IMG/VR virus record: IMGVR_UViG_3300033074_001883 | Coordinates: 1 to 64,000 of that record | Length of the DNA stretch: 64,000 nucleotides | From: a virus | Taxonomy: Duplodnaviria > Caudoviricetes | Reading direction: 5' to 3' (one strand) | Shown here: piece by piece, positions 31,739-60,308 of the stretch | How positions within the stretch are numbered: the stretch's first letter is position 1 | Layout: every line of letters begins with the position of its first letter | The notes under the pieces: model-generated | What the model saw: the letters and a program-made list of their open reading frames with translations, nothing else | What the model was told of the DNA's origin: nothing | Databases searched by the model: none | Made by a program: the position numbers and the translations under genes

Positions 31739-32569
31739 TTAGGCTCCTTTGACAGCGAATCCGAAGATGCGCCTGCACGCCGCTTCGGAGTAGTGGGGGC
31801 GCAACTCGCGGAGGATGCGAACAGCCTCCGCTTCCCGCAGACCGTCGGACTTCCGAACGACCCGCAGCGACTTCTCGGTTGGCTGCTCGTGCGTGCGCTC
31901 CATGTGGGCCGTGTAGCCGCCCTCAGAGCGAAACGCCTTCTTGCAGCCCTTGCACTGCCAGACTGCCTTGACTTCGTCGTGTTCGAGGTCCTGCGGCACC
32001 ATCACGCGGCCACCCGTCGTCGGGGTGATGGCGCTGCCTGCGGAGAGCGCGCGTTCGACGGTCTCGCCATCGAACGACTTCGCGAGGACCTCCCACGTGC
32101 AATTCGGGTTCACCGGGCTGTTGGTGACCGCGACGTTGCGGATCTTCGCCTTCACGATGTGGTTGCCGCGACGCTCGATGACCTTGCCTTCGATGCTGAA
32201 GCCGAGGCGACGCTTGGTGCCTTCGAGGCTCTTGGCGAGGTTCCAGATGTCGTCGACGCGGGAGAAGCCCTTGAGCATGTGGCCGGTCGTGTACCAGCCC
32301 TTGCCCTTGTGGAACTCGGCGGCATCGGGGACGCCCACGACGGCGGAGGTCGACTGGTTGTGGTTGTCGTTGAAGAAGCCGTGCTGCACGAACTCGCTGA
32401 AGTCGAGGCCCTTCTGGAGGACCACTTCGGACTGGCGATCGAGGTGCTCTGTCGAACAGTAACCACCGATGCGACGCGACTCCTCGCCGTCGCCTTCGCG
32501 GCTCTTCAGAATCTCCACCGTTCCGGGTTGCCAGATGGTGAAGAAGTCGTCGTTGAGGAGCTTGGTCAT
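31739..32569 (-). CDS. Prohead protease
   Basis: RRIGGYCSTEHLDRQSEVVLQKGLDFSEF..HGFFNDNH...GFSIEG...VAVT.SPVNP.CTWE..AKS. Confidence 0.9.
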   Translation of the reverse strand: MTKLLNDDFFTIWQPGTVEILKSREGDGEESRRIGGYCSTEHLDRQSEVVLQKGLDFSEFVQHGFFNDNHNQSTSAVVGVPDAAEFHKGKGWYTTGHMLKGFSRVDDIWNLAKSLEGTKRRLGFSIEGKVIERRGNHIVKAKIRNVAVTNSPVNPNCTWEVLAKSFDGETVERALSAGSAITPTTGGRVMVPQDLEHDEVKAVWQCKGCKKAFRSEGGYTAHMERTHEQPTEKSLRVVRKSDGLREAEAVRILRELRPHYSEAACRRIFGFAVKGA

Positions 32570-33453
32570 GAGGGGTCTTCCAGTCGGAGTTGTACCGCCC
32601 GAAGAGAGGTAGCGTCAACGTCGGACTGAAGAACGAGCGCGATGCCCTTGGAGACCGCCCGCTCTTGCCGATGGAACCACTCTTCGTACGAGGGGAACTT
32701 GTCTGTGCCGAGCTTGGGCGCACCCATCCGTCGGTATGCAAGACGGTCGCTGTGATCGAGGACGAATTGAATGCGCAACCACGTGTCGTCGACGCACGCG
32801 GCCGGTAGCAGCGGGCGAAGCACGTCCAAATCCTCACGCTTGATGCGCGCGAGCTTCTTGGTGGCCCACTCCGGCATGGGCAGACGTGCGTAGTACAGGT
32901 ACTTGTGGAAGACGCTCCGGTAACCCTTGTAGTAGCGGCCGAAGGAGAGCCCGTTGTCGATGGCCCAGACCTTCTTCTGCGTCGGGTCGGCGAGGATGTT
33001 CCGGCCGTGCCGGTCGACGTTGTTAACCACGAGGTCGAGGAGAACGATCTTCTGAAGATCGTCGAGGTTCGAGCGGAAGAAGAACTTGGCGAGCTTCTGC
33101 TTCCAGTCGCTCTGCTTCTTGTCGAAAAGCCCGGGCACCACGTCACGCGGTTGCATGCCGGTGACGACCCACTTCTGCACGCTGGCTTCGCGGCCCTTGT
33201 ACTTGGTGAGCACCGTCTCCGGCACCACGCCGAAGTCGAGCACGTGTGCGTCGAGGAGGTACGTCGCGACTTCCCTCCGAGGCAGCTCCTGCTTCGGGAT
33301 GCCCCGGAAGAAGTCGTTCGCGAAGGGCCTCGTCTTGAGGATGCCCTTCTCGCCGTTCGCGTAGACAGCAAGCTGCGCGTCGAACTTCCCCTCTTGAATC
33401 GAGGAGACTTTCGACGGCTGCTCGCTGTTGACGGTCTCGGCGAACTTGGTCAT
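32566..33453 (-). CDS. PI3/PI4-kinase-like (HipA/CtkA-related) kinase
   Basis: GILK, REVATYLLD...FGVVPETV, GREASVQKWV, catalytic-type LDLVVNNVDRHGRNIL and WAIDNGLSF. Confidence 0.8.
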   Translation of the reverse strand: MTKFAETVNSEQPSKVSSIQEGKFDAQLAVYANGEKGILKTRPFANDFFRGIPKQELPRREVATYLLDAHVLDFGVVPETVLTKYKGREASVQKWVVTGMQPRDVVPGLFDKKQSDWKQKLAKFFFRSNLDDLQKIVLLDLVVNNVDRHGRNILADPTQKKVWAIDNGLSFGRYYKGYRSVFHKYLYYARLPMPEWATKKLARIKREDLDVLRPLLPAACVDDTWLRIQFVLDHSDRLAYRRMGAPKLGTDKFPSYEEWFHRQERAVSKGIALVLQSDVDATSLRAVQLRLEDPS

Positions 33454-34043
33454 CAGACGTTGACGAGTGCGAGGTAGGTACGCGTGCCGTTCGGGAGGTT
33501 CGTGCCCGGGAGCACGGTGTTGAACTGGGTGTTGAACGTCGCCGCTTCCGGAACGCCCGTGACGGAGAGAATGCCGACCGCCGCTGCGAGGTTGCGAGCG
33601 ATGCCGAGCTTCGAGCCGGGGCCAGCCGTGGCCGCCGCCGCGTTCGCGCCGACCGCCGTCTTCACGGCCGAGGTGATGGTCTTGAACGCGACGTTGCCGA
33701 CGACCGTCGAGGCCGCGACCGCGACGATGGTCTCCGTCACCGGCTCATCGAACTGGTTCGTGCCGGTGATGACGACGTTGCCACCGTCCCACGACGCGGC
33801 GAAGGCGACCGCGATGTTGCGCGGCTGTGCAGGAGCGGCGGTGACGGTGAACGCGTTGCCTGCCGAGTTGCCTGCGAGCGACGCGAGCACGCCCGTGGTC
33901 GCGGAGGCTGCGGCGGCACCGAGGTTCACGAGCTGCGGGAGGAGGCCGCCCGCCTTGAGGTTGTCCGACGAGGAGATTTCGCGAGTGCGACCGAGGATCT
34001 CAGGGCTGTCGAGGCCCTGAACGACGAGAGTGGCGTTCGGCAT
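33453..34043 (-). CDS. Head decoration/fibre-like virion protein
   Basis: Ala/Gly/Thr-rich; PRNIAV...GNVVITGTNQFDEPVTETI...V.GNVAFKTITS pattern seen in phage structural proteins. Confidence 0.55.
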   Translation of the reverse strand: MPNATLVVQGLDSPEILGRTREISSSDNLKAGGLLPQLVNLGAAAASATTGVLASLAGNSAGNAFTVTAAPAQPRNIAVAFAASWDGGNVVITGTNQFDEPVTETIVAVAASTVVGNVAFKTITSAVKTAVGANAAAATAGPGSKLGIARNLAAAVGILSVTGVPEAATFNTQFNTVLPGTNLPNGTRTYLALVNV

Positions 34044-34079
34044 GGTGTTGCTCCGTGGGTTGGGTGTTGCGGTGGACTG

Positions 34080-34946
34080 CTACGAACCGAGGCCTTCGTA
34101 CACCAGCTTGCCTGACCGGTCGAACTTGAACCCGGGCGGCATCTCCTGAAGCTCGCACTGGCACCACGGGTGGTGACTCTTCACCGTGGGCTGGCGGTCA
34201 GCACGCACGCGGTTCACGTTGGTCCCGGTGGCGAGAAGCTCGCTGAGCTTGAAGACGCGCGGAGCGCCGCTCTTCGTGAGGTAGGCGCTCTTGCACTCCT
34301 CGCACGCGCTCTTGCGCACGCGCTTGAAGACCCACGGGTCTCGCCCCTTGTTCGACTTCTGGATGGTAGCGAGCTTGCCTTCTTGGAAGGCGTTGTTGAT
34401 TTCGGTGACGACGATGCGGTGCCAGTTGTGGGCGTGGTCGTTCGTCGCCTTGCGGAGTGCGCCGACGACCTCGTTGAGGCTCTTCCGCTTCTCGATGCCC
34501 TGCACGAGTTCACGTTTGACGACCGCCGCGAGTCGACGGCGGAGGTCTTGGTCTGCGTCGACGAGGACCTCCTGCGTCGACTGGTCGATGCGACCGCCGA
34601 GGCCCTTGAGGTGCGTCGTGACGGAGCGCTTGATGTGCTTGAGCGCCATCGTCTCCTCGGCGGAAAGCGGCACCGACTTCTGCGTGATGAAGTGCTTGAA
34701 GTCCGCGTACGACATGTCCTTCAGCTTCAATTCCTCCATCGAGTCGGCGAGGAAGCCGAAGAGGAACGCGCCTTCGACGAGGCCGCGCTTCACCTGCGCC
34801 TTGGTGACGAGGCCGGACTTGATGAGGCGGGCGACTTGCTCCTCCGGGAGCGTGTCACCGAGGCCGATCTGAACGAGGAACGCGCTGTGGTGGTCGTCGA
34901 TGATGCGCGAGACCTCCTTCAACTGCCGGTCGCTGAGCGCCTGCAT
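34080..34946 (-). CDS. MuF-like minor head (morphogenesis) protein
   Basis: NWHRIVVTEINNAFQEG...ACEECK...VFKLSEL...HHPWCQCEL...PPGF.FD. Confidence 0.8.
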   Translation of the reverse strand: MQALSDRQLKEVSRIIDDHHSAFLVQIGLGDTLPEEQVARLIKSGLVTKAQVKRGLVEGAFLFGFLADSMEELKLKDMSYADFKHFITQKSVPLSAEETMALKHIKRSVTTHLKGLGGRIDQSTQEVLVDADQDLRRRLAAVVKRELVQGIEKRKSLNEVVGALRKATNDHAHNWHRIVVTEINNAFQEGKLATIQKSNKGRDPWVFKRVRKSACEECKSAYLTKSGAPRVFKLSELLATGTNVNRVRADRQPTVKSHHPWCQCELQEMPPGFKFDRSGKLVYEGLGS

Positions 34947-35331: not shown

Positions 35332-38300
35332 TCACACCAACTCGAAGTCGTGAAGCGTCTTGATGAACCGCTTCACCATAGCATCAGTCGGCCGCTTATC
35401 GAGCGCTTCCTCGAAGAGGTCAGACCAGTCAGACATCGAGGCAGGCTTCTTCCGCGCCGAGCGCACGACTTCGACGATGGCCTTGAGCGGAAGCACGACT
35501 CCGCCGCCCATGTCGACCTCGTGCTTCTTGTACTCCTTCGTCTCCGTGTGCGGGCCCTTCAGCTTGTAGGCCCAGCCGCCCATGTAGTTAACCGACGGGG
35601 CCTTCACCTCCGGGTGCTCAGGCTCCGGGGCGGCCTTCGCCTTGCCGCCCTTCGCGGGAGCGGCCTTGGTCGGCTCCGGCTTCTTCTGTTGCGGGAGCGG
35701 CGTCTCCGAAGCCTTCGGCGTGTGCGTCGAGCCGCCCGTGCTGATGATGCCGAGCTTGTCGAGTTCCTTGAGGCCTTCCTTGACGACCTTCTCGACGTCG
35801 TCGCGGTTGTCCCACCACTTCTGGGCTGACGCGAGGTGCGCGGTGTGGTCTTCGACTTCGCCCTTCGCGTTACGCTTGACCTCCGCGTCGACGCCCGCCT
35901 TGAGATGGTCGTCGATGAAGTCCGTGAGCGTGAGGCCGCCCTTCGTCTTCTTGACGGCAGCGAGCACAGCCTGCGCCGTGGGGCTGAGCTTCGACGTCGG
36001 GACCTTCGTCGAGTTCGGCGAGAGCACGTACGTCGGCTCTGGCTGCGTCGGCTCCATGTCCGGTGACGGCACCATCGTACGGCCGAGGTTGCGGTTCTGG
36101 CGAACCCAGTCGCGCTCTTCCTTGTCTACGCGGCTGAGCGCGGTGCGGTACTCCTCTGGAGTGACCTCGCCGTTCTTCTTCTTCACGCCCAAGAGCATGC
36201 GCTTCGTCTTGAGGGACTCCTGCCGGAAGTCGAGGTACTCCTTGTACTCGACCGTCTTCGAGAACTCCTTGAGGTTGAACTTCGGCTGACCGGCGACGAA
36301 GCGGAGGTCTTTTGGCGTAACGAGACCCTGAAGACCCTTCGACCGGATGCGCTCTTGGAGAACGGAGTCCGGCGTCTTCTCGATCTGAGCCGCCGCGATG
36401 CCCTCGTCGCCGCCGAGGACCGCTGCCATCTGCTGCTGCATGCGGGCACTCATCAACGTCTCGTCGTAGGCCGACGACATCGCGACGTCCGTGCCGACCT
36501 TCTTCCCGAGGCCAGCGATCTTCTTCTGGTCGAAGGTCCCCTTGAGGTACATGTTAATCACCTCGACGTCGTTCTTCTGACCGGTGCGCCACACTCGCCC
36601 GAGGGCCTGCTGCTTGTGGCCGATCATGAACGGCTGGTCGAGGAAGACCATCTTGTTCGACTTCTTCTGGAGGTTCAGACCGGCACCACCGGCCTGCGTC
36701 CCGACGAAGAGCACCTTGATCTTCCCGGCGTTGACTGCGTCCTGCATCGCCGCGCGGTCGTTGACGTCGACGCCACCGTGGATCTCGCCAATGAGCGACG
36801 GGTCGATGTTGTGCTTAAGCAACTCCTCCTTCGCGTACTTGAAGGACCCCGGCCACTGGCTGAAGACGACCATCGGCTTGTCGTGGTTGCCGGGCACGTT
36901 GAAGTGCGCCTTCACCAACTCCGCGAGGTGTTCCAGCTTCGGCTGCGCGCCGTCGTAGCCGTGCTTCTTCCACTCGGCCGGGTCGTCGCCGAGCACGAGG
37001 CGCGGTGAGACGGAGAGCATCTGCTGCTGATGCATGACCTTGAAGTGGCCGCCCTTCTCGATCTCCGAGGCCGGGACGAACGGTTGACGCTCCTTCTCGG
37101 GGAGCTTGGCTTGGCGAGCGTCGTAGTCGTGCGGCTTGATGTCACCAGCCAACTCGAAGAGGCGAGCGAACGAAGGCGGGGCCACGAGGCCGTGCGTCGC
37201 GCCGCCCTCTTCGCCCTCGTCGCCGATGAGCCTCGGCAGAACCTGAACAGCCTTCTTGTTAGCCTCGACGACGTCCGGGTCGAGCTTGTTCTTGCGGAAC
37301 ACGTACGGCTGAACGTCCTTCGCGACACGACCCCAGTCAGCGACGGAGGTGACCTCTTCGGCACCCTCCTCGTTGATGCCGACCTCGTCGACCATCATCT
37401 TGTTCTCGAACTTCTTCACGTCCGGGCCAGCGGAGCCCGGGTTGATGAGGTCCATCAACTCGAAGAGTTCCTCTGGCTTGCCGTTCGGCATCGGCGTCGC
37501 GGTGAGGAGGAATGAGTGCTCACGGTCCTTGAGGAACTCACGCGCAGCGGCGTTGTGCGTATTCGCCGCCGTCTTCAGGCCCTGTTGCTCGTGGTGGGCC
37601 TCGTCGAAGAAGACGCACCCCTTGAGCTGCCGGAGCGCCGTGCAGAGCTTGTCGCCGGAGGCGTGGTCGCGGAGCGCCGTGACGAACTCGTCGTCCGTGA
37701 CGCCCTTCTTCTTGACGACCTCGCCCTTGTCGTTCTCCTCGAAGATCTCCGAGCCCTTGAACGACGCACGCGTGTCCTCGTGGAAATTGACCACTGACGA
37801 GGAGAGGATGACGAAGTCGGCTTCGAGGTCGCCGTTCTGGATGGCTTCGAGGACCTTCACGCGGTCCTCTGCGCTCTTGACGTCGTCGCCGATGGTAACG
37901 ACCTTGGCGTCGGGGAAGAACTTGCGGATCTCCCCGGGCCACTGCTTCGTGAGGCCGAGCGGCATCACCATGATGCCGCGTGCGTCGCCCTTTCCGATCT
38001 TCCCTTGCTTAGCCAACTCCTGAAGGTGGGCGATCATCGAGATGGACATGGGCGTCTTCCCCATGCCCGTGTCGTACGCGAGGATGCCGCGTTTGATTTT
38101 CGTCATCCAGCTCAGGGCCTGACGCTGGTACGGGAACAGGTCGTGACCTTGGCCCTGCGCCTTGAAGCCGTCCGCGATACCCTTTGGGGTAGCGAAGCTC
38201 GTGTCTTCTTGCGCGGCCAGCGAGGACTCGATGAGCGCCTTCTGGGCGGCGACCTTTTCGGCCAGCCGCTTGATCGCGTTGTCGTCCTTGAAGAGTGAGT

Positions 38301-39636
38301 CGGGCGCGATGGACTGCGTGAGGATGAGACCGAGTTCGGCACCACCGGAGTCGTCGTTGAAGGAGCGAACGTAGTTGTAGATCTCGCTCGCCAACTCGCG
38401 CGTGCGGGCGAACCCCTTCTTCGCCGCCTCGTCGTCGAACTCGTCTGCGCCGAACACCGAGTGCAGGAGCTGCACGTTGAGTGACTTGTTCGCGCGTTCG
38501 ACGTCGGACTTGCCTTCGTCGTTGAGCGCGAGGTCTTTGAACTTGTCACCATCTTTGAAGTAGCCGTCCGTCTCGTTTCCGACGTCGCCGCCCGGCTGGA
38601 AAGCGATGCCGCCTTCGCGCATGTCGCGGAACATCTGGGCGACGTAGATGGCGAGCGCCTGAGTGCCGTTCGTGTCGTCGAGACGCGAGTAGAGCGCTTG
38701 GAGGCGCTCCTTGTTCGGAACGATGTTACCCACCGCCCGCTTCGCGTCCTTGCGCTGGACGAACGTCTCGCCCGCCTCGCGCGCGTTGTGCGGGATGTGG
38801 AGGAGTTCCATGTCCGACATGAGCGCAAGGAGACGAATCGCTTCGTCCTTCACGTTGCCGGTGAGGATCTGGTCCGTCTTCCCGTCGCTGTACTTCTCGC
38901 TGCGGCGAATCTGCGCGTGCGCGTGCTGCTCCTGAAGCTGGCGCTTCTGCACCGCCTGCCGCGCCTTCTGCCGGAACTTCGGGTCTTCGAGGAGGCCGTG
39001 GTAGGCCTCGAACATCTGAGCGAGGGCTTCTTCGCCCTCCTTCTCGTCGATGCCCGCTTCCTCGCAGAGGTCCTTCCAGTAGTCCTTGATGTCGAGGCCT
39101 GCCGTGCTCGCGTCACGGAAGAGGGCCATCACCATGTCGGTGTCGTAGCCCTTCGACGTCATCGCTGCCTGCACCTCGGAGCGGATGGACGAGTGGTAGT
39201 TGTAGACGACATTGATGTTCTCGTGGAGCTTCTTGGTCTCCTCCTCGTCGAGGGGTTCCCACTCGCGCTCGTTGTCGTCGTCAGTCGGCTTCGTGCCGTA
39301 GCGAACGTGACCGTTCTTGTCGCGCCACCACTTGCCACCACGGATGCCGGGGTTCTTGATGCCTGCTTCGCGGCGCTTCTTGTCGGCCTCGATGTCCTTG
39401 GCCGTCTTCGGCTTCTTCGCGCCCGGGGCCTTCGCCGCCTTGGCGAAGTCTTCGCTGAGCCCACCGGGGATGACGTAGAGCCCCTCGGACTTGGTGATGC
39501 CGTGTGCCCGACCGAGGACCGAGGCGATGGCCTCGTTCATTCGACCGAGCATCCCGATGTACTCGCGGCTGAGGTTAGTCGCGAGTTCATCGAGAACCGG
39601 GTGTGCCAGCATCACTTCGTCACGAGGAGTCTCCAC
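35332..39636 (-). CDS. SNF2-family (SF2) helicase/translocase, 1434 aa, probably virion-packaged
   Basis: LFPYQRQAL, AYDTGMGKT (I), FFDEAHH (II), LLTATPMPNGKPEELF (III), VFSQW, IHGGV...R, GGAGLNLQ, QALGRVWRTGQ (VI). Long N- and C-terminal extensions. Confidence 0.9.
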   Translation of the reverse strand: METPRDEVMLAHPVLDELATNLSREYIGMLGRMNEAIASVLGRAHGITKSEGLYVIPGGLSEDFAKAAKAPGAKKPKTAKDIEADKKRREAGIKNPGIRGGKWWRDKNGHVRYGTKPTDDDNEREWEPLDEEETKKLHENINVVYNYHSSIRSEVQAAMTSKGYDTDMVMALFRDASTAGLDIKDYWKDLCEEAGIDEKEGEEALAQMFEAYHGLLEDPKFRQKARQAVQKRQLQEQHAHAQIRRSEKYSDGKTDQILTGNVKDEAIRLLALMSDMELLHIPHNAREAGETFVQRKDAKRAVGNIVPNKERLQALYSRLDDTNGTQALAIYVAQMFRDMREGGIAFQPGGDVGNETDGYFKDGDKFKDLALNDEGKSDVERANKSLNVQLLHSVFGADEFDDEAAKKGFARTRELASEIYNYVRSFNDDSGGAELGLILTQSIAPDSLFKDDNAIKRLAEKVAAQKALIESSLAAQEDTSFATPKGIADGFKAQGQGHDLFPYQRQALSWMTKIKRGILAYDTGMGKTPMSISMIAHLQELAKQGKIGKGDARGIMVMPLGLTKQWPGEIRKFFPDAKVVTIGDDVKSAEDRVKVLEAIQNGDLEADFVILSSSVVNFHEDTRASFKGSEIFEENDKGEVVKKKGVTDDEFVTALRDHASGDKLCTALRQLKGCVFFDEAHHEQQGLKTAANTHNAAAREFLKDREHSFLLTATPMPNGKPEELFELMDLINPGSAGPDVKKFENKMMVDEVGINEEGAEEVTSVADWGRVAKDVQPYVFRKNKLDPDVVEANKKAVQVLPRLIGDEGEEGGATHGLVAPPSFARLFELAGDIKPHDYDARQAKLPEKERQPFVPASEIEKGGHFKVMHQQQMLSVSPRLVLGDDPAEWKKHGYDGAQPKLEHLAELVKAHFNVPGNHDKPMVVFSQWPGSFKYAKEELLKHNIDPSLIGEIHGGVDVNDRAAMQDAVNAGKIKVLFVGTQAGGAGLNLQKKSNKMVFLDQPFMIGHKQQALGRVWRTGQKNDVEVINMYLKGTFDQKKIAGLGKKVGTDVAMSSAYDETLMSARMQQQMAAVLGGDEGIAAAQIEKTPDSVLQERIRSKGLQGLVTPKDLRFVAGQPKFNLKEFSKTVEYKEYLDFRQESLKTKRMLLGVKKKNGEVTPEEYRTALSRVDKEERDWVRQNRNLGRTMVPSPDMEPTQPEPTYVLSPNSTKVPTSKLSPTAQAVLAAVKKTKGGLTLTDFIDDHLKAGVDAEVKRNAKGEVEDHTAHLASAQKWWDNRDDVEKVVKEGLKELDKLGIISTGGSTHTPKASETPLPQQKKPEPTKAAPAKGGKAKAAPEPEHPEVKAPSVNYMGGWAYKLKGPHTETKEYKKHEVDMGGGVVLPLKAIVEVVRSARKKPASMSDWSDLFEEALDKRPTDAMVKRFIKTLHDFELV

Positions 39637-39670: not shown

Positions 39671-39766
39671 TCAACGAGTCAGAAGGTAGAGCCCGGCCGA
39701 GGAGACGAGGGCGAGCGCGAGAAGCGCTGCCCTCAGAAGGCGGATGCGACGCCGCATAGCGCGCAT
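39671..39766 (-). CDS. 31-aa single-TM peptide
   Basis: Strong SD GAGGAGGAG before ATG 39766; MRAMRRRIRLLRAALLALALVSSAGLYLLTR fills the gap between two genes. Confidence 0.5.
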   Translation of the reverse strand: MRAMRRRIRLLRAALLALALVSSAGLYLLTR

Positions 39767-39783
39767 CTCCTCCTCGTACGACT

Positions 39784-40353
39784 TCACTCTTCGTCCGAGC
39801 CCGGCGTCGCGCGCTCCATCTCCGGGTTGCGGAGCGAAGGCGTGATGAGCGAGTTCTCTTCGAGCTGCTTCGAGAGAACCATGTCGGGGAGCGCGGTGTA
39901 CTCGACGACCGACACGGAGTCGAACGAGGGGAACGACTTCACGACGCCCGAGCGAGGAGCATGCGGCTTCTTCGCGTGGTCGCGCTCCGCGCCGCCACCG
40001 GCCGACGAGACGCCCTTCTTCTTGACGAACGAACCGGGCTGCGAGCCACGGACCGGGTTCATCTCGTTGCCGATCTTCGCGGCAACGCCCTTGCCCTTCT
40101 TCTTCATGCCCTTCTCGACATCGGTCTCGAAGAACTCGGCGAACGACTTGATCATGACTTCTCCTTCGGGTTGGTCCTGCGTGGTTGACTTGCCCATCTT
40201 CGTCATCTTGTTGAGCGACGCCGTGTTCTTCTTCTTCTGCGCAGCGGAGAGGCCGGGCGCGTGAACGACCTTGCCCATCTTCGGCTTGTTCTTCTTCTTC
40301 CACGCCATCGTCGCCATGCCCTTGCCCTTCGCGAGATACTCTCTTCCAGTCAT
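39784..40353 (-). CDS. Lys-rich hypothetical protein (putative internal head protein)
   Basis: 189 aa, very basic, with MIKS/VEKG/VVKS motifs. ATGA-coupled to the upstream gene. Confidence 0.6.
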   Translation of the reverse strand: MTGREYLAKGKGMATMAWKKKNKPKMGKVVHAPGLSAAQKKKNTASLNKMTKMGKSTTQDQPEGEVMIKSFAEFFETDVEKGMKKKGKGVAAKIGNEMNPVRGSQPGSFVKKKGVSSAGGGAERDHAKKPHAPRSGVVKSFPSFDSVSVVEYTALPDMVLSKQLEENSLITPSLRNPEMERATPGSDEE

Positions 40354-41933
40354 GAGATTGCTCCTTGCTTCTTGAGTAGCGAGTGGAATTCCTTGGCCGA
40401 CTTGGCCGCGTCGGACTGTGAGAGGTCGTAGCCCTTGGTCAGGAAGGTAGCAAGTTTCGCCAGCGTGTTCACCCCCGAGACGTGGAGTGAGTCGGCGAAC
40501 TCGCGCTCCTCGGTGCCCTTCTTGAGGGCGCGCGGGTTGAGCGTGAAGCTCTTCTTCGAGAGCGCGGCCTTGTCGCGCTTGATGCCGGTCTTCAGCTTCG
40601 TGACCTGCTCCTCGGCCTCGGTGATGTCCTCGCGGAGGTGGTCGCGGGAGACGGGCACGGTCTTCGTCTTCGCGAGCGTGACGCCGCGCTTGGCGAGGTC
40701 GGCCTTCTTCGGGTTGAGCGACTTGGTGGCCTGACGCTTGAGCACGGCGAAGACGGAGGCGAGGTACTCGTCGCTAACCTTGTGCTTCGTGATGAAGCTG
40801 GAACCGTGTTGCTTGAAGAACGTGATGAAGCCGCGCTCGTCGCGGGAGTCGGCGATCTTGTGGAGCCGGTCGACGGTGACGCCGAGGACGGCTGCGAGCC
40901 GGTGGGGCGACGGCTCCACCATCGTGTCCGGGGCCATGTCCGGGACCGCGCCCTTCGGTGACGACGCGGCGGCGGGCTTCTTGCCCGACGGCTTCCGGTA
41001 GTCGTAGGTCTTCTTGCCGTTCTTGCTCGCGCCCACCTTCGCCGTCGGTGCTGCGGTCGCTTTCTTCTGTGGTCGCTCGCGCTTCTCCGACGGCTTCGTG
41101 AGGATGGCTTTGTTGAGGTGCTCGTCGATGCGCTCAACGAGTTGGCTGGCGACATCGTCCGAGTAGGCGTCGAGGCCGTGGTGCTTGAAAGCACGCACCG
41201 CTTCGAGACGCTGACTGCGCGCGGAGTCGAGCCTTCCGGCCATGGCCGCGCCGAGCGCCTCGTCGAGCAGACCACGAGCCGCTTGCACAGAGAGCTTCGT
41301 CACCGGACCGGCCGCGCCCTTGGCTCCGACGTGAACCAGCTTCCCCGACTTCGTCTTGCGCGTGTACGCCTTGTGGTTCTTCGACTTCTTCGTCTCCTCC
41401 GACGACTCGTCCTCGACGCCGTGCATCGCGTTGAAGATGCGCTTGTCGCGGTTCGCGGGCATCGACTCCTTGCCACGTCCTGCCGAGGCGGCCGGTGAGC
41501 CTGCGCGGTCGGTGCCTACCATCGAGCCGATGGCCTTGTGCACGAGGTTCATGAAGGCGCGATTCTCGATGGCCTTCTTGTAGACCTCGTACGGACCGAA
41601 GCGCTTCGCTGCGAAGTAGCCCTTGGCGACCTCGAAGAGCTTCACGCTCGGCATCGACTTGATGGTCTCCTCTTCGTCGACCGGGCGCTCTTCGTAGTAG
41701 CGAACGACCTGATGCTTCGTCGCGCGCTCTTGGAACGCAGTGATGCGGGCCGCGTTCTCGGGGCTGTCGGTGTCGCGCGTCACTTCGTCCTTCGGGCCGT
41801 ACTTGCCCGTCCAGAAGCCCTGCCCCTGCGCCCCTGACTCCGGGTTGAGGTAGAGCTTCGCGGCGGAGATCTGCGTGTGACGGTTGCCACCGCCGCTCAC
41901 TACGCCATTCGGCTGTTCACGTTCGACGCCCAT
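40350..41933 (-). CDS. Basic hypothetical protein (putative internal head protein)
   Basis: 527 aa with many hydrophobic-x-K-[ASG] sites and a YTRKTKSGKLVHV motif. Confidence 0.65.
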   Translation of the reverse strand: MGVEREQPNGVVSGGGNRHTQISAAKLYLNPESGAQGQGFWTGKYGPKDEVTRDTDSPENAARITAFQERATKHQVVRYYEERPVDEEETIKSMPSVKLFEVAKGYFAAKRFGPYEVYKKAIENRAFMNLVHKAIGSMVGTDRAGSPAASAGRGKESMPANRDKRIFNAMHGVEDESSEETKKSKNHKAYTRKTKSGKLVHVGAKGAAGPVTKLSVQAARGLLDEALGAAMAGRLDSARSQRLEAVRAFKHHGLDAYSDDVASQLVERIDEHLNKAILTKPSEKRERPQKKATAAPTAKVGASKNGKKTYDYRKPSGKKPAAASSPKGAVPDMAPDTMVEPSPHRLAAVLGVTVDRLHKIADSRDERGFITFFKQHGSSFITKHKVSDEYLASVFAVLKRQATKSLNPKKADLAKRGVTLAKTKTVPVSRDHLREDITEAEEQVTKLKTGIKRDKAALSKKSFTLNPRALKKGTEEREFADSLHVSGVNTLAKLATFLTKGYDLSQSDAAKSAKEFHSLLKKQGAIS

Positions 41934-44577
41934 TGGGTCCCCTCAACACACGACGGAGTTTGACGAGCAACTGAGCGAGCACGGGGTCGACCCGAGTCGC
42001 GGACTTGATGATGAGACCGATGGGGCGCTTGATGGCCTTGTTGTCCATCGCTCGCTGCTGAACGATGAGGCGCGCCATCTGCTCGATGACCTCTGGTGAC
42101 GCGCCCTCGATGGAGACGACCTTGCCGCCCTTCTTCTGCACCGTGAACGCGGTGCTGATGGGCGTGCGCACCTTCGCGCCCGTCGGCATGTCGGCCACCT
42201 TGGCGTCGTGCGTAGCGTAGGCGGCGGCCTGCGCGCGGTGGTGGTCGTCCTTGAACTTGAGGAACTCGGGACGCGTCGACAACGCGGCGAGCCGCCACGA
42301 GCCGAGCTTCGAGAGCTTCCGCCACACCTTCATGAGGTGGATGCCACGAAGCTGCTTGAGCCGGAGTTGCGGCGTCATCCCCAATCCGGCCGGAGCGACG
42401 TGACCCATGCCGAGGTCGAGCTGCGAGGCGGGGTCGAAGTGCGGAGCGCGGTTGGTCGACACGGGTTGACCCGCGACGTTGCGAGCCTGCGCCGCCCAGA
42501 AGTCGTGAGCCTCTCGCACCTTCGGGTGCGCGATGAGCGGGTGCTGCTTCGCCGAGTGCCCCGTGACGGGAGGCTTGAGGTTGACTTGCCGGGAAATCTT
42601 CGCGTGGAGCGGGAGCGCCGTCGACTCGCCCGGCTTCGACTGCTTGTGCTTAGCCGCCTGCGTGGGCTCGTGAATCCGCTCCCACGCTTGCGTCCCCGGG
42701 ATGGAGGCGCGACGGAAAGCCGACACGCGGATGAGCGCGCGGATGCCCTCCTTGAGGCCTTCCTTCTCACTCGGGCGCAGACCGGCTGCGAAGCCGTCGC
42801 CCGCGACGCGAGTGAGGGACGAGAGGTTGCGCGTGAGCATGCCCTTGATGTGAGCGACGGACGGGCCCTCGTGCTTCGTCTTCTTGAGGTAGCCCGCGAC
42901 GTCCTTCGCGACGGAGGTCCAGTCTTTCAGCCCGCCGCCACCCGACGGCGTGTCGTCCGGGTTGTGGAGGTTGAGGCGCGACATGAGGCCGATGGCCGCG
43001 ATGGGCGAGAGGCGCGTCTCGACAATGCGCTGCACGTCCTTGATGGCGACGATGTCCTCGGCCGACGTGTACGGCGTGCCGAGTGCGTCGGTGTGCTCTC
43101 GAAGCTGCGACGAGGTGAACGCGCCCTCCTCGTTCCACGTGAGGGCTCCACCAATCTCGTGGAGAATCTCGGGCTCCACCGTGCCCGCGTGGATGGCGTC
43201 TGCGAGTGCGGAGCGCACGGTGTTCTGCGCCGTCTTCTTGAGTAGCGACAACGCGTAGAAGCGGAAGTTGGAACCACTGTCGCGACCCGTGCTCGCCATG
43301 TGCGCCGTGTACGTCTCGGCGATGTCGTTGAGCTTGATGCGGAGGTCGGACTCGATGTCCTTCGCCAGCTCCTTCGAGTCGAGGATGGTGCCCCACCCCA
43401 TCTTGTTCGTACCGAACGCGCGGCCTCGCGCGATGTTCCGGATGTCGGAGTCGAACTCCTTGAAGAGGGCGGCCCGCTGACCCGGCGTGAACCAGTTGCG
43501 GCCGGACTCCGGGAGACGCTCGCCGCGCCAACCGGAGGAGAGTGCGTAGGCGAGGGGGTTCGACTGTGGGTCGAGGTCGTTGATGTCGGCCGACTCGGTG
43601 ATGATGAGTCGCTCGCCGACGCCGAGCTTCGGTGCCTTCGTCGGCACGACGAGTGCGAGCCCCTTGGTGCCCTTGAGCTTCCACTTCAGGTTAGTCAGTT
43701 GCTGCTCGATGTGCGGCGGGAACTCAAGCGCCGACTTCGGCTTCTCACCGAGAGCGCGAATCTTCTTCGACGCGGCCTCGTGCTCTTTCAGGTACAGAGC
43801 CCACTTCTCCGGGTTCTGCTTAATCCACTCGCGGCCTTCCTCGCGAAGCTGCTCCACCTGCTGCTGGAGCGTGAGCACGCGGAGGAGCTTGGTCGCGAGC
43901 GGGCGCTTGTTCACTTGCGGGAAGAGCGCGGCGAGGTCCTTCTTCACCTTGTCGAGCTTGACCTGAAGGTCCGCCTTCGCTTCGAGGAGGCTCTGCGAGT
44001 CCTTGTGCTCGGCGAGCTTCGCCGTCGCGTTGCCGATCTTGCTGATGAGCACGTCGCGCTGCGCGCCGAGCGCGACTACCTTCTTCGCGGCGTCGTAGCC
44101 GACCGGGTCGAGCTGCTTCAGCTTGTCGCCGAGGCGCACGTACGTGTAGCGGATGTTGTTCTCGTGGTCGGCCCGGCGCGCCTCGACCTCCGCCACAGAG
44201 ACCGACGTAGCCCCTTCCAGAGGCACCGGGATGCCCGCAGGCGAGAACTTCAGGCCCGAGGAGGGCCCGGAGGTGGGCGGAGGGGCGATCGTCGTTCCTG
44301 CGGCCGCGTAGGGCCTCGGAGCGCCCTTCTTCTCGGTGGCCGTGTTCGCCGGGAAGCGGTGGGGTGAGGTGAGGTCCCGAGCCACGGCCACGTTGCCTCG
44401 ACGGTGCTGGAGCGCGAGCCACGTGCCGATGCGGCCGGAGTCCTTGGCGTAGAAGTATTGCGGGTACGTCTTCCCGGCACGAGTCGTCACGTCGTAGATG
44501 GCGACGTACTTCGTCTTGCCGCTACCGGCCGTGCGACCCTTCTTCAGGTTAACGATGTTGAAGACGCCGAAAGTCAT
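41917..44577 (-). CDS. Large protein with a sigma70-like region 2/4 module
   Basis: ATG 44577 overlaps the portal TGA. Region-2-like FDSDIRNIARG...DL.IKL.DIAETY...GSNFRFYAL.LLK...N.VR; region-4-like VQRIVETRLSP...GL.SRLNL...TSVAKDV...SVAHIK.MLTRNL.SL. Confidence 0.55.
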   Translation of the reverse strand: MTFGVFNIVNLKKGRTAGSGKTKYVAIYDVTTRAGKTYPQYFYAKDSGRIGTWLALQHRRGNVAVARDLTSPHRFPANTATEKKGAPRPYAAAGTTIAPPPTSGPSSGLKFSPAGIPVPLEGATSVSVAEVEARRADHENNIRYTYVRLGDKLKQLDPVGYDAAKKVVALGAQRDVLISKIGNATAKLAEHKDSQSLLEAKADLQVKLDKVKKDLAALFPQVNKRPLATKLLRVLTLQQQVEQLREEGREWIKQNPEKWALYLKEHEAASKKIRALGEKPKSALEFPPHIEQQLTNLKWKLKGTKGLALVVPTKAPKLGVGERLIITESADINDLDPQSNPLAYALSSGWRGERLPESGRNWFTPGQRAALFKEFDSDIRNIARGRAFGTNKMGWGTILDSKELAKDIESDLRIKLNDIAETYTAHMASTGRDSGSNFRFYALSLLKKTAQNTVRSALADAIHAGTVEPEILHEIGGALTWNEEGAFTSSQLREHTDALGTPYTSAEDIVAIKDVQRIVETRLSPIAAIGLMSRLNLHNPDDTPSGGGGLKDWTSVAKDVAGYLKKTKHEGPSVAHIKGMLTRNLSSLTRVAGDGFAAGLRPSEKEGLKEGIRALIRVSAFRRASIPGTQAWERIHEPTQAAKHKQSKPGESTALPLHAKISRQVNLKPPVTGHSAKQHPLIAHPKVREAHDFWAAQARNVAGQPVSTNRAPHFDPASQLDLGMGHVAPAGLGMTPQLRLKQLRGIHLMKVWRKLSKLGSWRLAALSTRPEFLKFKDDHHRAQAAAYATHDAKVADMPTGAKVRTPISTAFTVQKKGGKVVSIEGASPEVIEQMARLIVQQRAMDNKAIKRPIGLIIKSATRVDPVLAQLLVKLRRVLRGPNGRRT

Positions 44578-46361
44578 CAGAGGTCCCGGAAGGAAGAGAG
44601 CGCCTTCTTGAGGTCGCCCGCGAGATTCTTCGGCAGCGAGGCGTGGATGGTCTCCTCCCACACGTCGCTCGTCTCCTCACGGGAGAACGAGTGCTCGTCG
44701 TTGGGCGTGGCTTCCTCGTCCTTGGCGGGAGCGCCAGCGGGCGCGGAGGTCTGCGTGTCCTTCTCGATGGCTCCGCCGAGACGGCGCTCGGGCTGACCGG
44801 GCTGAGGCGGCTTGTTCGGAGGACCGAACTGCTGCTCGAACATCTCCTTGTGGCTCGGAGGACGGCCGCCCGACGGGAGGCCGGGAGGCATCTCGGGTGC
44901 GCCACCGGGCGCACCACCGGGAGCGCCGGGCATCCCCGGCATGCCGCCCGGAGGACCCGCCTGCTGCTGAGCCTGCATCGCGAGTTGGTTCTTGAGCCCG
45001 ATGTACGTCGGGTTCATCACCGTGTCCCCGTGTTCGACTGGCGCGAGTTCGTCGGCCTCGCGGCGGATCTCGTTGAGCGTCTTGTACGAGCCGAGTTCCT
45101 TCATGCGGAGTTCGATGGCTTCCGACTCCGAGCGAGCGTCGAGGCCGACGAAGAGGAACTCGTAGTCCTCGTCCATCTCCCAGATGATTTCCTCGTTCAC
45201 CGTGTTCTGGAGGAAGCGCAGGAGCGGCTGGAGGCCTCGGTCCTTCGAGACCTTCTGCTGCGCCTCGTTCGTCGTCATGAACATCGGCTGCGAGCCGACG
45301 CCACCACGCGAGTCGAAGTTAATCTCAGCGGGGTCGATGAGGTAGACGGCGCACGCGATCTTGATGAGGTACTCCAGCCACTGCTGGAACCCCATGTCGT
45401 TGTTGCTCGGCTGAAGCGGAATCCACTGAAGGTTATCCGAGTTCATCACGGGCGTGCGCCACGCGTTCGACACGCTGCTCACCTGCGTGAGCCACTGCCG
45501 ACGGAACGCCTCCATCTGCGGCGCGGGCACCTTGCCCTGCACGTTCAGGATGCCCTTCACCGTCGAGCCCTGAGAGAAGACCTTGCGGTTCCACTCCTCG
45601 GCCCAGAGGTGCGACGTCACCGTGTTGATGAGCAACTCCAACTCGGAGAGCCCGTAGCCGTAGCTCTTCAGGTCGGTGCGCGGGTTCGCGACGCGGAAGA
45701 TGAGTTCCCGGCGCGTGAACTCGTTGACGATGGTGCCGTCGATGACTTGCACGTACTGCGGCACGTACGTCTGCTCGTGCTTCGTGAGCGGAGCGCCACG
45801 GCGCGTCTTCGCCGGAGCGATGCGGTACGTCGCCGAGTCGACCGCGTGAATCGAGTAAGGTCGGCCGTTGCGACGGAGCACCTTCTCGGAGACGAGCTGG
45901 TCGTAGACGAGCCGGTCGCGCACGACCTTGCGCGCCCACGTCTCGAACGAGTCGCGGCCCGGGTCGCGGCCCTCACCCATGTTCTGGATGAACCTCTCCA
46001 GATGCGTGATGTGCTCTTTCTCGGAATCGGTGAGCTTGCGCTTCTGGTCGCGGTGCTGAACGCGGAAGCCGACGCTGTACTTGTTCCGCTGCGGTTGGCA
46101 GAACGACGCGACTTGGTTAACCCGCGTCTGGACGATGGCGGAGACGACCGAGTTCTTCTCGCTCATCTGCTTCAGCGTCTCGTACGAGATGGCCGACGGG
46201 TTGGACCGGTAGCCCAAGCCCATCGAGTCCATCAACGCGTACGGATCGTTGAACCATGACTTCGGGATGCCGAGTTGCTGCCCGTCACCCGAACCCTTCT
46301 GGAGGTCAGCGTGATCGAGGCCCGCCTGTACGAGCGCGAGCGTGCTGTTGGGGTGCGCCAT
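44577..46361 (-). CDS. Portal protein
   Basis: LKQMSEKNSVVSAIVQTRVNQV..F, DSFETW.RK.VRD.L.YDQ, YGYGLSELE, WN.K.FSQG...GIL, DMGFQQWL.YL...CAVYLIDP.EINF. Confidence 0.93.
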   Translation of the reverse strand: MAHPNSTLALVQAGLDHADLQKGSGDGQQLGIPKSWFNDPYALMDSMGLGYRSNPSAISYETLKQMSEKNSVVSAIVQTRVNQVASFCQPQRNKYSVGFRVQHRDQKRKLTDSEKEHITHLERFIQNMGEGRDPGRDSFETWARKVVRDRLVYDQLVSEKVLRRNGRPYSIHAVDSATYRIAPAKTRRGAPLTKHEQTYVPQYVQVIDGTIVNEFTRRELIFRVANPRTDLKSYGYGLSELELLINTVTSHLWAEEWNRKVFSQGSTVKGILNVQGKVPAPQMEAFRRQWLTQVSSVSNAWRTPVMNSDNLQWIPLQPSNNDMGFQQWLEYLIKIACAVYLIDPAEINFDSRGGVGSQPMFMTTNEAQQKVSKDRGLQPLLRFLQNTVNEEIIWEMDEDYEFLFVGLDARSESEAIELRMKELGSYKTLNEIRREADELAPVEHGDTVMNPTYIGLKNQLAMQAQQQAGPPGGMPGMPGAPGGAPGGAPEMPPGLPSGGRPPSHKEMFEQQFGPPNKPPQPGQPERRLGGAIEKDTQTSAPAGAPAKDEEATPNDEHSFSREETSDVWEETIHASLPKNLAGDLKKALSSFRDL

Positions 46362-46374
46362 GGTTAACCACGTT

Positions 46375-48171
46375 TCAGGAAGTGCGGGTGGAGGACGGCT
46401 TGTTGAGGACCAGCTTGCCGCCGAGCGGGTTGTGGACGTTCATCGGAGCGCGGACCTCCATGCTCTCGACGAGGGCCTCGCCACCACCGCCAGCCTCGAT
46501 GGCCTTGGCGATGTCGGCGTCCGTCGGGTTGTTCGAGAGCGAGACGGCGAGGCTCTTCGCAGCATCGCTGAGGAACGCCTGCGGCTCCAAGACGCCCGTG
46601 GCCGAGCGCTCTTTGGCGTAGCGAGCGGACGAGTGGTCCATCGCCGTCTTGCCGTGACGACGCCCGAGAAGGTTGTGCTTCTGGGCGATGTCGCCGAGGT
46701 ACTTCCGAGCTGCGTGCGGGAGCTTGCCGCGAGGACCGTAGGAAGTGACGCCGTGGGCTGCGTCGGAGAGGCGCTCGCCGATGTCGCGGTGAATCTCCTC
46801 CGCCTCGCGGTGCTCGTCCTCGGTGTAACCCTCCGCGCCGTGAGCGTCGGAGTGGATGGGCTTGCCCGACGAGGTGTGACCGACGACGCAGCGCTTGCCG
46901 CTCTTGTGCGCCTTGATGAGGTCGAGGTCCATCGTGGTGAGGGCCTTCTTCGAGGAGAGACCGTGTGACTCGGCTGCCGCCTTCGCGTGTCCCGCGCTCT
47001 CGAAGTCGCCGATGTGCATCATCCCCGCGAGCTTCGGCTTGTGGAAGAGGCCCACCTTGCTCTGGGTTCCGTGAAGGTGAACGTGGAAGTGGCCACCGCC
47101 CGGAGCACGGGCCTTCACACCACCTGACTGCGGGTGAGGTGCCCACTTCAACCCCTTCGACACGTCCGGGTTCATCGAGTGCATGAGGCCGGTCGAGTGG
47201 TAGGCCGAGCGGATCTGGCCTGACGTGAGATTCTTCGCCTTGTCACCGAACTCCGCGCGCACCTTGTTGTGGAAGTCGTGCACGTGGTCGCTCGCGTGCG
47301 CGAGGTCAGCGATGTGCTCCGGCTTCATGCCGACGTGAGCCGCGAGGTGCTTGTGAGAGAACACCTTGCCGCCACCGGCCTGCGCCGCCTTGTACTGCGA
47401 GGCGGACGACGGGTTCTGCATGTGACGACGACGGACCTCGTGGAGGATGGGGCTCTTCGCCGGGTTCACCTTCGCGCCGACGACCGTCTTCCCGGGCTCC
47501 CAGCCGCCGCTGTCCACCTTCGCCCGGCTCGCCACCGGGGTAGCACCGGCCTTCGGGTTCGGGCCCACGACGTGGAGACCAGCAGGCTTCACGCCTGCCT
47601 GTGTGCGGTCCGTGTCCTCGCCTCGGTAGCCCTGCTTCATACTCGGGTTCTTGAGTTTGGGCATCGGCATCGTCGCGGCCTTCTTCATCGTGCCGGGGCG
47701 GTACTCCGTACTCGCGGTCGCGTGCTTCTGCTTCATCAGCTTGAGCCGCTTGGAGTAACCAACCGGGGCCTTCTTTTTCGGAATGCCCGACGTCTCCTTC
47801 GACTTCGTGCCGCCCTTCCACGGCATCTTCGGCCCACCGGCTCCCTTCCCGAGGTCCATGTGCCCCTCGTCGCCGAGTACCTGAATCACGAGGTCCGGGC
47901 CGGAGCGGTCGTCGGAAGCGGGCGTGGTCGAGCGCGGAGCGTTGTGCGCGAGGCCGCGCTTCGCGCGCCACTCCTGATACGCGGCTGCGTCGGTGACGAC
48001 CGGTGCGTAGCCGACCTCGGGCGCGGAGCCGTCACCGCACGCGTTCGGCACGGTGCCCTTGAGGCAGAGCGTGCGGTTCGCGACGTAGTGCAGGCACCCG
48101 TCGCACTTCGCGTTGGGCATGATGATGGTGCCAACACCAGTCGTCTCGTCGTCGGAGTGGGACTTTTTCAT
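46375..48171 (-). CDS. Basic His/Lys-rich hypothetical protein (putative internal head protein)
   Basis: 598 aa. N-terminal CxxC...C...C cluster, VVGHTSSGKPIH motif, multiple L/I/V-x-K-[AGS] sites. Confidence 0.65.
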   Translation of the reverse strand: MKKSHSDDETTGVGTIIMPNAKCDGCLHYVANRTLCLKGTVPNACGDGSAPEVGYAPVVTDAAAYQEWRAKRGLAHNAPRSTTPASDDRSGPDLVIQVLGDEGHMDLGKGAGGPKMPWKGGTKSKETSGIPKKKAPVGYSKRLKLMKQKHATASTEYRPGTMKKAATMPMPKLKNPSMKQGYRGEDTDRTQAGVKPAGLHVVGPNPKAGATPVASRAKVDSGGWEPGKTVVGAKVNPAKSPILHEVRRRHMQNPSSASQYKAAQAGGGKVFSHKHLAAHVGMKPEHIADLAHASDHVHDFHNKVRAEFGDKAKNLTSGQIRSAYHSTGLMHSMNPDVSKGLKWAPHPQSGGVKARAPGGGHFHVHLHGTQSKVGLFHKPKLAGMMHIGDFESAGHAKAAAESHGLSSKKALTTMDLDLIKAHKSGKRCVVGHTSSGKPIHSDAHGAEGYTEDEHREAEEIHRDIGERLSDAAHGVTSYGPRGKLPHAARKYLGDIAQKHNLLGRRHGKTAMDHSSARYAKERSATGVLEPQAFLSDAAKSLAVSLSNNPTDADIAKAIEAGGGGEALVESMEVRAPMNVHNPLGGKLVLNKPSSTRTS

Positions 48172-60102: not shown

Positions 60103-60308
60103 GTGCCCTCCGTGTGCTTAACGAGCGGTACACGAGTGCCGTCGTGACGCCTGCGCATGCCGGTGGCCTCTTCGAGGAGGATGCGCGCCACGGTGTCGCG
60201 CTTGATGCCCAATCGAGCGGCCAACTGGGGTGTCGTGAGGCTCGGGTCCTTGGCCCGGAGGGCGATGATGGTGGCCCGTTGCAGGGCGATGCGTTCCTTG
60301 CGTTGCAT
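60099..60308 (-). CDS. HTH DNA-binding protein
   Basis: LTTPQLAARLGIKRDTVARIL; SD GAGGA. Confidence 0.7.
   Translation of the reverse strand: MQRKERIALQRATIIALRAKDPSLTTPQLAARLGIKRDTVARILLEEATGMRRRHDGTRVPLVKHTEGT

Follow-up and report, generated by a model that had tools for sequence, protein, structure and literature searches.

A remote sigma-70 domain 2-like module within a large, portal-coupled protein of an uncultured myovirus

The 886-amino-acid gene and its family

The DNA analysed here, referred to as the window, is a stretch of 64,000 nucleotides and part of the 80,045-bp IMG/VR virus record IMGVR_UViG_3300033074_001883, for which CheckV estimates a completeness of about 62%. The record belongs to an uncultured, SPO1-like-headed wastewater myovirus of high guanine plus cytosine (GC) content. 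Directly after its portal gene lies a gene for a protein of 886 amino acids (aa), the central part of which is predicted to fold like the initiation factors of the sigma-70 family, and this gene is the subject of the present work. Its parts are given below in window coordinates; a slash within a motif marks a putative cleavage point, HTH stands for helix-turn-helix, AF2 for AlphaFold2 and pLDDT for the predicted local distance difference test score.

41917..44577 (-): the 886-aa gene, of an orphan family (P0002); ATG at 44577, the start overlapping the portal stop as TGATG
44539..44577 (-): leader MxFGVFxxxNLxK, residues 1-13, ending in an LKK/G site; candidate propeptide or capsid-targeting tag with putative cleavage
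44368..44538 (-): small conserved strand-rich N-terminal domain, residues 14-70, GRTxGSGKTKY...YFY; from conservation and strands modelled with low confidence
43672..44196 (-): long helical hairpins or coiled coil, residues 128-302; from the model, pLDDT mostly 60-87
43183..43572 (-): sigma-70-family domain 2-like module (regions 1.2/2.1-2.4), residues 336-465; from the AF2 model, structure searches, hhalign and TIGR02937/Sigma70_r2
43066..43182 (-): acidic linker, residues 466-504, with conserved W-x-EEG-x-x-T-x-DQLR; poorly modelled, pLDDT 36-54
42808..43065 (-): four-helix HTH-like subdomain, candidate equivalent of sigma domain 4, residues 505-590; model pLDDT 65-84
42001..42012 (-): IIK/S, a C-proximal [LIVMF]-x-K/[SAG] site, residues 856-859, 23-31 residues from the end
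41941..41985 (-): conserved basic amphipathic C-terminal helix LAxLLxKLRRLLK, residues 865-879

The enclosing open reading frame (ORF), 41917..44661 (-), has 914 open codons, within which the 886-aa form starts at the ATG at 44577; the last 17 nucleotides of the gene overlap the start of the next one. An original prediction, made from the letters of this DNA, had placed a sigma70-like region 2/4 module at 42810-43480, which corresponds to residues 366-589, in a head-cluster protein that is coupled to the portal gene and has an N-terminal NLKKG motif. The setting was found as described, since the start and stop codons of the two genes overlap, NLKKG occupies residues 10-14, and the cluster runs from the portal through the 886-aa gene to a MuF-like protein, the protease, the scaffold and the major capsid protein. 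The string of residues quoted for region 2 is also present (I379..I382-A383, D411-L412...L416...A420..Y423 and G435-x-N437-F438..Y441-A442...L446-K447), with DL...L...A..Y at 411-423 and G-x-N-F-x-x-Y at 435-441 both inside the domain 2-like module, as is the one quoted for region 4 (L523-x-P525.....L531..R534..L537, T554-x-V556-A557 and S573...I577-K578..L581-x-R583-x-L585..L588).

The 886-aa protein has no match in Pfam (E<=10) or PHROG and no sequence relative in the PDB, and tblastn of 50,697 phage records gave none either; with the sub-region alone these searches were equally unproductive. Searched exhaustively with HMMER, 1.84 billion cluster representatives yielded a family of 18 clusters, from wastewater, aquatic and other metagenomes. 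Neither IMG/VR nor the GTDB species genomes gave a confirmed relative, and homologue searches by word index, which are of limited sensitivity, returned at most the protein itself and an 84%-identical relative, with no stand-alone form of 153-650 aa. Overall identity among the 18 homologues goes down to 18-22%; across them G359, G394, F438, L535, N536 and K551 are invariant and G349, A428, S533, A557 and D559 nearly so. Because these residues persist at so low an identity, the patterns quoted in the original prediction exceed what chance would give. The conserved positions fall in two blocks, G-x-N-F-x-x-Y and SRLNLHNP...GGLKSWDxVAxDV. Outside the core, helices are modelled at 128-156, 158-190, 195-223, 226-254, 256-275 and 288-302 of the coiled-coil part, and a 260-residue tail ends in the basic helix.

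Predicted fold of the core

A full-length AF2 model built from three sequences was discarded (pLDDT 48). An alignment limited to residues 336-626 (A4), which holds the window protein and nine homologues (10 sequences), gave a template-free AF2 model with a pLDDT of 71.5, in which residues 336-465 mostly score 73-94, with about 54 at the loop 386-395. A sigma fold had been anticipated for this region and is indeed predicted, the model retrieving mostly sigma factors with Foldseek and almost only sigma factors with VIA-align, an aligner independent of Foldseek that compared it with 48,161 representative chains. Against the PDB, Foldseek gave no row at E<=0.001, and most of its top 50 are sigma chains with E 0.07-1, among them HrdB/SigA, sigmaS, sigma32 and sigmaE; when Foldseek's list was realigned, 50/50 rows were sigma chains.

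With VIA-align, sigma factors or a sigma-derived scaffold make up 31 of the 33 top chains. The best is Staphylococcus aureus SigB (Z 9.3, root-mean-square deviation 2.3 A, 92 residues), and sigmas of the extracytoplasmic function (ECF) type reach Z 7-7.7; since the aligner itself cautions that Z values up to about 13-14 are common by chance for helical models, the argument is drawn from lists filled almost exclusively by sigma chains and not from the scores. ShbA, pro-sigmaK, SigI6, SigK, sigma28, SigC, SigW, AlgU, RpoS, sigmaE and sigma70 are also among the top chains, together with chain F of the T4 late-transcription complex 7d7d, the identity of that chain being unchecked. In the realignment of Foldseek's list, both subdomains of the model were aligned with SigB (159 residues) and with Pseudomonas aeruginosa sigma28 (Z 8.6), which on domain 2 gives Z 8.3 and 22% identity. 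In the viral model library BFVD, of different composition, phage sigma factors rank first. A feature search of the ESM Atlas gave no usable match, its structure rows having template modelling (TM) scores of <=0.33.

Sequence relationship to sigma factors

The family profile was compared by hhalign with an alignment of six E. coli sigmas (RpoD C-terminal half, RpoS, RpoH, FliA, RpoE and FecI), which returned one alignment, with P 0.0094 when the profile held 10 sequences and P 0.005 when it held 18. This alignment spans sigma regions 2.1-2.4 and pairs ALFKEFDSDIRNIARG with the region 2.1 helix, DLRIKLNDIAETY with DLIQEGNIGLMKAVDKF, and G-S-N-F-R-F-Y-A with G-Y-K-F-S-T-Y-A or, in short, DL..L..A..Y with DLIQEG..GL..AV..F, a pairing equal to the assignment made beforehand for region 2. 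The invariant F438 and position 441, where the ten members of A4 have Y, F or H, pair with F427 and Y430 of sigma70.

Among the members of the family, Sigma70_r2 (PF04542) is the only Pfam family that recurs, at the homologous place in P0012 (E 0.0042, 17.3 bits) and P0013 (E 0.082, 13.2 bits), the cut-off being 24 bits. The NCBIfam superfamily model TIGR02937, with a cut-off of 42.9 bits, matches P0013 with E 9.9e-5 (22 bits, profile positions 13-97) and P0012 with E 9.1e-4 (18.9 bits). The window protein matches neither PF04542 nor TIGR02937 at E<=10. As all of these sequence matches are below the curated cut-offs, residues 336-465 are read as a remote homologue of sigma-70 domain 2 and not as a formal family member, a reading suggested by sequence statistics that are weak but concordant and by the predicted fold.

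A candidate domain 4

In the second half of the core, residues 505-590, four helices are modelled (506-522, 525-534, 553-567 and 574-589), with a long, extremely conserved loop between the second and the third, and their order and spacing match expectation for regions 4.1-4.2. The most conserved block of the family, SRLNLHNP...GGLKSWDxVAxDV, falls within this subdomain. Two-domain alignments lay it collinearly on sigma4 of SigB, sigma28, sigma32 and ECF chains, and winged-helix/HTH chains match it alone in VIA-align. No sigma4 signal was obtained on these residues with Pfam Sigma70_r4 (PF04545), r4_2 (PF08281) or hhalign. The prediction of a combined region 2/4 module thus stands for region 2, by fold and by sequence, and for region 4 only in the form of a collinear HTH-like subdomain lacking a sequence signal, so that a sigma domain 4 equivalent at residues 505-590 is plausible but unproven. 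An hhalign pairing of W..L.PSER.GL (597-610) with L..L..RER.VL (P 0.067) was rejected as a spurious region 4 match, because no HTH follows.

Terminal motifs and gene neighbourhood

The leader site, [LIVMF]-x-K/[GAS], stands at position 9-12 in 15/15 members having their N-terminus, and the C-proximal site recurs in 11 of the 12 closest members, while the four divergent members keep KKS. Each member has 2-3 copies of [LIVMF]-x-K-[SAG], versus 4-5 expected from composition. Terminal sites that are kept, together with internal depletion, are the pattern that trimming of both ends by the prohead protease, with selection against internal sites, would be expected to leave. In the major capsid protein the leader ends in ...ENLNK/ALS, which aligns with ...ALNKALE of the SPO1 group. 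The terminal sites therefore suggest, on the evidence of sequence, that the 886-aa protein is trimmed by the prohead protease, whose specificity is putative, and the C-terminal helix is a candidate assembly or targeting peptide that would be removed at the IIK/S site.

The gene belongs to the head-morphogenesis module, as seen in its TGATG overlap with the portal gene, in the island that lies between portal and protease, and in the synteny kept on all contigs that reach far enough. The neighbouring genes are the following (window coordinates, unless the record is named).

44577..46361 (-): portal gene, directly upstream; PF04860 E 3.9e-20, phrog_15361 and phrog_12; 46% identical to SPO1-group portals
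40350..41933 (-): 527-aa gene, directly downstream; N- and C-terminal modules of the cargo protein, no topoisomerase IB domain
35332..39636 (-): SNF2-family helicase, 1434 aa, a conserved part of the island; PF00176, PF00271 and PF04851, with a weak DarB-like PHROG match
34080-34946 (-): MuF-like minor head protein, within 31739..34946, the remainder of the island
32566-33453 (-): PI3/PI4-kinase-like protein, 295 aa; PF00454 E 1.9e-9, with weak Fam20C and HipA-like matches
31739-32569 (-): head-maturation protease, at the far end of the island
48479-49177 (-): FMN-reductase-like flavoprotein, in the same order in relatives
51669-52508 (-): ParB_N protein, in the same order in relatives
record 64219-65934 (-): large terminase TerL, GpA_ATPase E 6.6e-15; about 18 kb from the portal

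Along the coding strand come, in turn, a 598-aa gene, the portal, the 886-aa gene, the 527-aa gene, a 189-aa gene, the SNF2 helicase, a 126-aa gene, the MuF-like gene, a 196-aa gene, the PI3/PI4-kinase-like gene, the head-maturation protease, the scaffold, the major capsid protein and the tail genes. Every homologue contig that reaches upstream has the gene of the 886-aa family directly after the portal. On those that reach downstream a modular protein comes next, with topoisomerase IB in five, and an SNF2 helicase of about 1350-1780 aa then follows in six. A conserved block further upstream in the relatives runs ParB_N ... FMN-reductase ... unannotated large protein.

The 527-aa protein matches the first ~250 and the last ~270 residues of the 1230-aa protein of relative L001 (BLASTP 4e-59 and 7e-52), and the first ~215 residues of the 787-aa protein of L002 (BLASTP 2e-44). 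The middle of these two proteins is a topoisomerase IB domain of eukaryotic/poxvirus type (PF01028/PF02919), and the version with topoisomerase IB is found in five relatives with lengths of 787-1230 aa (L001:10835-14527, L002:11117-13480, L006:10988-14377, L007:11012-14038 and L008:11231-14458). A topoisomerase IB in a phage head cluster seems to be undescribed in the literature searched.

Portal-adjacent synteny, the terminal sites and the modular, cargo-like neighbour suggest, without proving it, that the 886-aa protein is carried in the head of the virus and enters the cell along with the DNA.

Interpretation

The explanation that we favour, tentatively, is that the 886-aa protein is a late-made, head-packaged and end-trimmed factor whose sigma-like core acts on the host core RNA polymerase at the start of infection. 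According to the models, this core (about residues 336-626) would be a highly diverged descendant of the sigma-70 family, in which sigma domain 2 is joined by an acidic linker to a four-helix HTH-like domain that takes the position of sigma domain 4. The protein would be made late, together with the portal, and incorporated into the prohead, where the protease would trim it at L-x-K/G (13/14) and at I-x-K/S (858/859). The trimmed protein would then be ejected with the DNA and, in the new cell, its sigma-like module would dock on the host RNA polymerase core and direct the enzyme to the entering DNA, or tether it there, for the initial round of transcription. Searches of the 80-kb record (about 62% complete) revealed no canonical sigma, no T7-like polymerase and no domain of a multisubunit polymerase, which makes a role directed at the host polymerase plausible; a phage that depends on that polymerase would gain by bringing a specificity factor with its DNA.

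Several points weigh against this explanation. The alignments behind the models are shallow (10-18 sequences), the linker and the ends are poorly modelled, and the Z scores, with a maximum of 9.3, are within the range that helical models reach by chance. No match attains the curated thresholds of Pfam, NCBIfam or PHROG, the sigma4 signal is missing on residues 505-590, and the putative HTH there has a turn of more than canonical length. The Trp pair of region 2.3 (W433/W434) is not conserved, its equivalents being aliphatic. No phage-specific promoter motif recurred in the 29 intergenic regions that were searched by k-mers. With the record at about 62% completeness, an RNA polymerase or another sigma could sit in the missing part. 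Finally, what the analysis shows is the predicted sigma2-like fold with its remote homology, the orphan family, the conserved synteny and the terminal motifs. That the protein is packaged, cleaved and ejected, that it binds RNA polymerase and that it confers promoter specificity we infer, and this too is counted against the explanation.

The main rival, which we consider unlikely but serious, is that the sigma fold was exapted and no longer binds RNA polymerase, serving as a DNA- or protein-binding part of a structural protein inside the head or associated with the portal, for example by holding the genome end or plugging the portal as do SPP1 gp7/MuF-type proteins. The position directly after the portal suits a portal-associated protein, and the size of 3-4 times that of a sigma, the long coiled coil, the extreme divergence below all family thresholds and the loss of the region 2.3 Trp pair speak for this rival as well; moreover, nothing in the sigma consensus corresponds to the most conserved block, SRLNLHNP...GLKSW. 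However, the sigma2 core keeps its DL... and G-x-x-F-x-x-aromatic signatures in register, a second HTH-like domain occurs at the spacing expected for sigma4, and the island already has a separate MuF-like protein.

It is improbable that the protein is a genuine phage sigma or sigma competitor that acts in the producing cell, unpackaged and merely encoded in the late head operon. The same sigma evidence would apply to it, no other sigma was found in the 80-kb record, and SPO1-type phages use sigmas of their own for their middle and late genes. Nevertheless, a portal-coupled gene in a late operon is badly timed for switching on late genes, and neither the conserved protease-type sites at the termini, with their internal depletion, nor the strict adjacency to the portal in every relative and the modular "cargo" neighbours would have a role. 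Very improbable is the absence of any true kinship with sigma factors, by which a generic helical bundle from a shallow alignment would attract the sigma chains abundant in the PDB: every E-value and Z-score is weak individually, helical models often reach Z ~14 by chance and the Atlas feature search was empty, but sigma factors, by estimate a small share of the 40%-identity representatives, take 31/33 top places, independent sequence-only tests give the same family, domain and register, and the differently composed viral library also ranks sigma factors first. It is on account of the points raised against each that these last two explanations are held to be the less likely.

An extension of the packaged-factor explanation, in itself rather doubtful, is that the whole island encodes a co-injected "pioneer" nucleic-acid kit, in which the sigma-like initiation factor, the cargo protein (with topoisomerase IB in most relatives) and the SNF2 translocase would all be packaged in the head and leave it with the DNA. 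Host RNA polymerase would be captured by the sigma-like protein on the end of the genome that enters first, with the topoisomerase and the translocase handling supercoiling and removing host proteins or restriction factors. If true, bacterial viruses would have in this kit a counterpart of the poxvirus core, where an initiation factor, a type IB topoisomerase and SNF2-type ATPases are packaged.

Comparison with known systems

Groups 3 and 4 of the sigma-70 family (SigB, sigma28/FliA and ECF; TIGR02937, PF04542) provide the best structural matches of the 336-626 model and share with it the fold of domain 2, the register of regions 2.1-2.4 and a second HTH-like domain after a linker. Unlike them, the module described here is below the cut-offs, has no detectable region 4 signature and has lost the Trp dyad; it is also just one part of an 886-aa head-operon product that has a coiled coil and additional domains, and its binding to RNA polymerase is a prediction.

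The original prediction had set as background that the sigma factors of SPO1-like phages are separate, non-virion proteins. This needs a qualifier, since a virion-associated sigma has been reported in the Salmonella phage Arash, in which the stand-alone RpoS-like sigma Gp10 was detected in particles by mass spectrometry, with 100% coverage, along with the phage beta and beta-prime subunits (PMC10585845). The two cases are alike in having a sigma-type protein tied to phage particles, actually in Arash and putatively here, presumably for transcription at the start of infection (PMC10585845). In contrast to Arash, no phage RNA polymerase is seen here, and the module is far more diverged and lies in a large multidomain protein whose presence in virions is putative.

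In phage T4, the internal proteins and Alt carry a capsid-targeting sequence, are trimmed by gp21 and are ejected, and Alt modifies the host RNA polymerase. Together with the virion polymerases of N4 and of the phiKZ type, Alt is among the packaged transcription machinery already known (PMC5512222). The 886-aa gene resembles those of the T4 internal proteins and Alt in being a late gene of the head module, with a short N-terminal leader that ends in a putative protease site like that of the capsid protein, and in the immediate action on host transcription proposed for it (PMC5512222). It differs from them in having no homology, a site of the form L-x-K/[GAS] versus L-x-E/, and a sigma-like docking, proposed from the models, versus ADP-ribosylation.

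A further likeness is with the head-packaged effectors of polyvalent and MuF neighbourhoods and with P1 DarB, since here too an island of large DNA-acting proteins lies beside the portal and MuF genes of a portal-terminase phage (Iyer et al. 2017, PMC5512222). Unlike the polyvalent proteins, which are single fused polypeptides, the domains here are on separate, translationally coupled genes (PMC5512222). The main text of that paper does not contain the word "sigma" (PMC5512222), and our literature searches found no report of a sigma-like domain within a large head-cluster protein. What is new is therefore an orphan, highly diverged module, apparently derived from a sigma factor, in the putative cargo protein of a phage in whose incomplete record no polymerase was found.

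If the protein is packaged and binds RNA polymerase, a phage without a polymerase of its own would bring promoter specificity in its particle, and the very first transcription event would already be phage-directed, to be compared with the known solutions of packaged polymerases (N4, phiKZ and Arash-type) and packaged polymerase-modifying enzymes (T4 Alt). A sigma fold would, moreover, have drifted past all curated models inside a large delivery protein, which would be of use in the annotation of viral dark matter and in asking about the minimal sigma-core interface. With about 18 clusters, the clade offers a defined, testable set.

The record, its strains and other genes

The GC content of the window is 63-67%, and almost every gene is on the minus strand. 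The head genes are distant kin of the SPO1/Herelleviridae set, with about 39% identity for the major capsid protein and about 46% for the portal, and the tail sheath is nearest to those of 90-kb myoviruses of Pseudomonas, Bordetella and Aeromonas. The island has no counterpart in Pseudomonas phage Touem01 or Bordetella phage PHB04, the nearest named phages by tail sheath.

Identical or near-identical sequence is contained in two unlabelled sequencing runs, and related strains, 90-99% alike over 20 kb, were met in metatranscriptome libraries from wastewater as well as in an aquatic metagenome. The RNA libraries cover these 20 kb evenly and carried-over phage DNA is indistinguishable from RNA, so that the libraries give no evidence of expression. 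The wastewater strains are without 268 bp within the 527-aa gene (window 41116-41385, with 10 other letters instead) and without 101 bp near 39.7 kb (window 39677-39779), two differences that represent strain-level length variation of the cargo island.

The PI3/PI4-kinase-like gene sits between the MuF-like gene and the prohead protease; in one relative, a gene of the same family has the same place, following the SNF2 helicase together with a 287-aa protein of MuF-like size. The 598-aa gene upstream of the portal (window 46375-48171, minus strand) has a Cys-rich N-terminus and counterparts of 562-853 aa in relatives, also unannotated; its candidacy as the terminase was rejected, as it has no Pfam or PHROG match and TerL was found at record 64219-65934. 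A small ORF at 60177-60272 (-), of ~69-79 aa, bears the sole Sigma70_r4 Pfam signal of the record (E 0.0056, 13.3 bits, below the cut-off) and is probably a small HTH regulator unrelated to the sigma-like gene. The remainder of the record (64001-80045) also encodes an SbcC/Rad50-like ATPase, an SbcD-like phosphoesterase, a 5'-3' exonuclease, RecA (E 3.5e-94), a KH-domain protein and an HTH_23 protein. In relative L007, an intein with a LAGLIDADG homing endonuclease lies within the portal (977 aa, L007:5068-8001), and a LAGLIDADG match is also present in the SNF2 helicase (1782 aa, L007:14674-19009).

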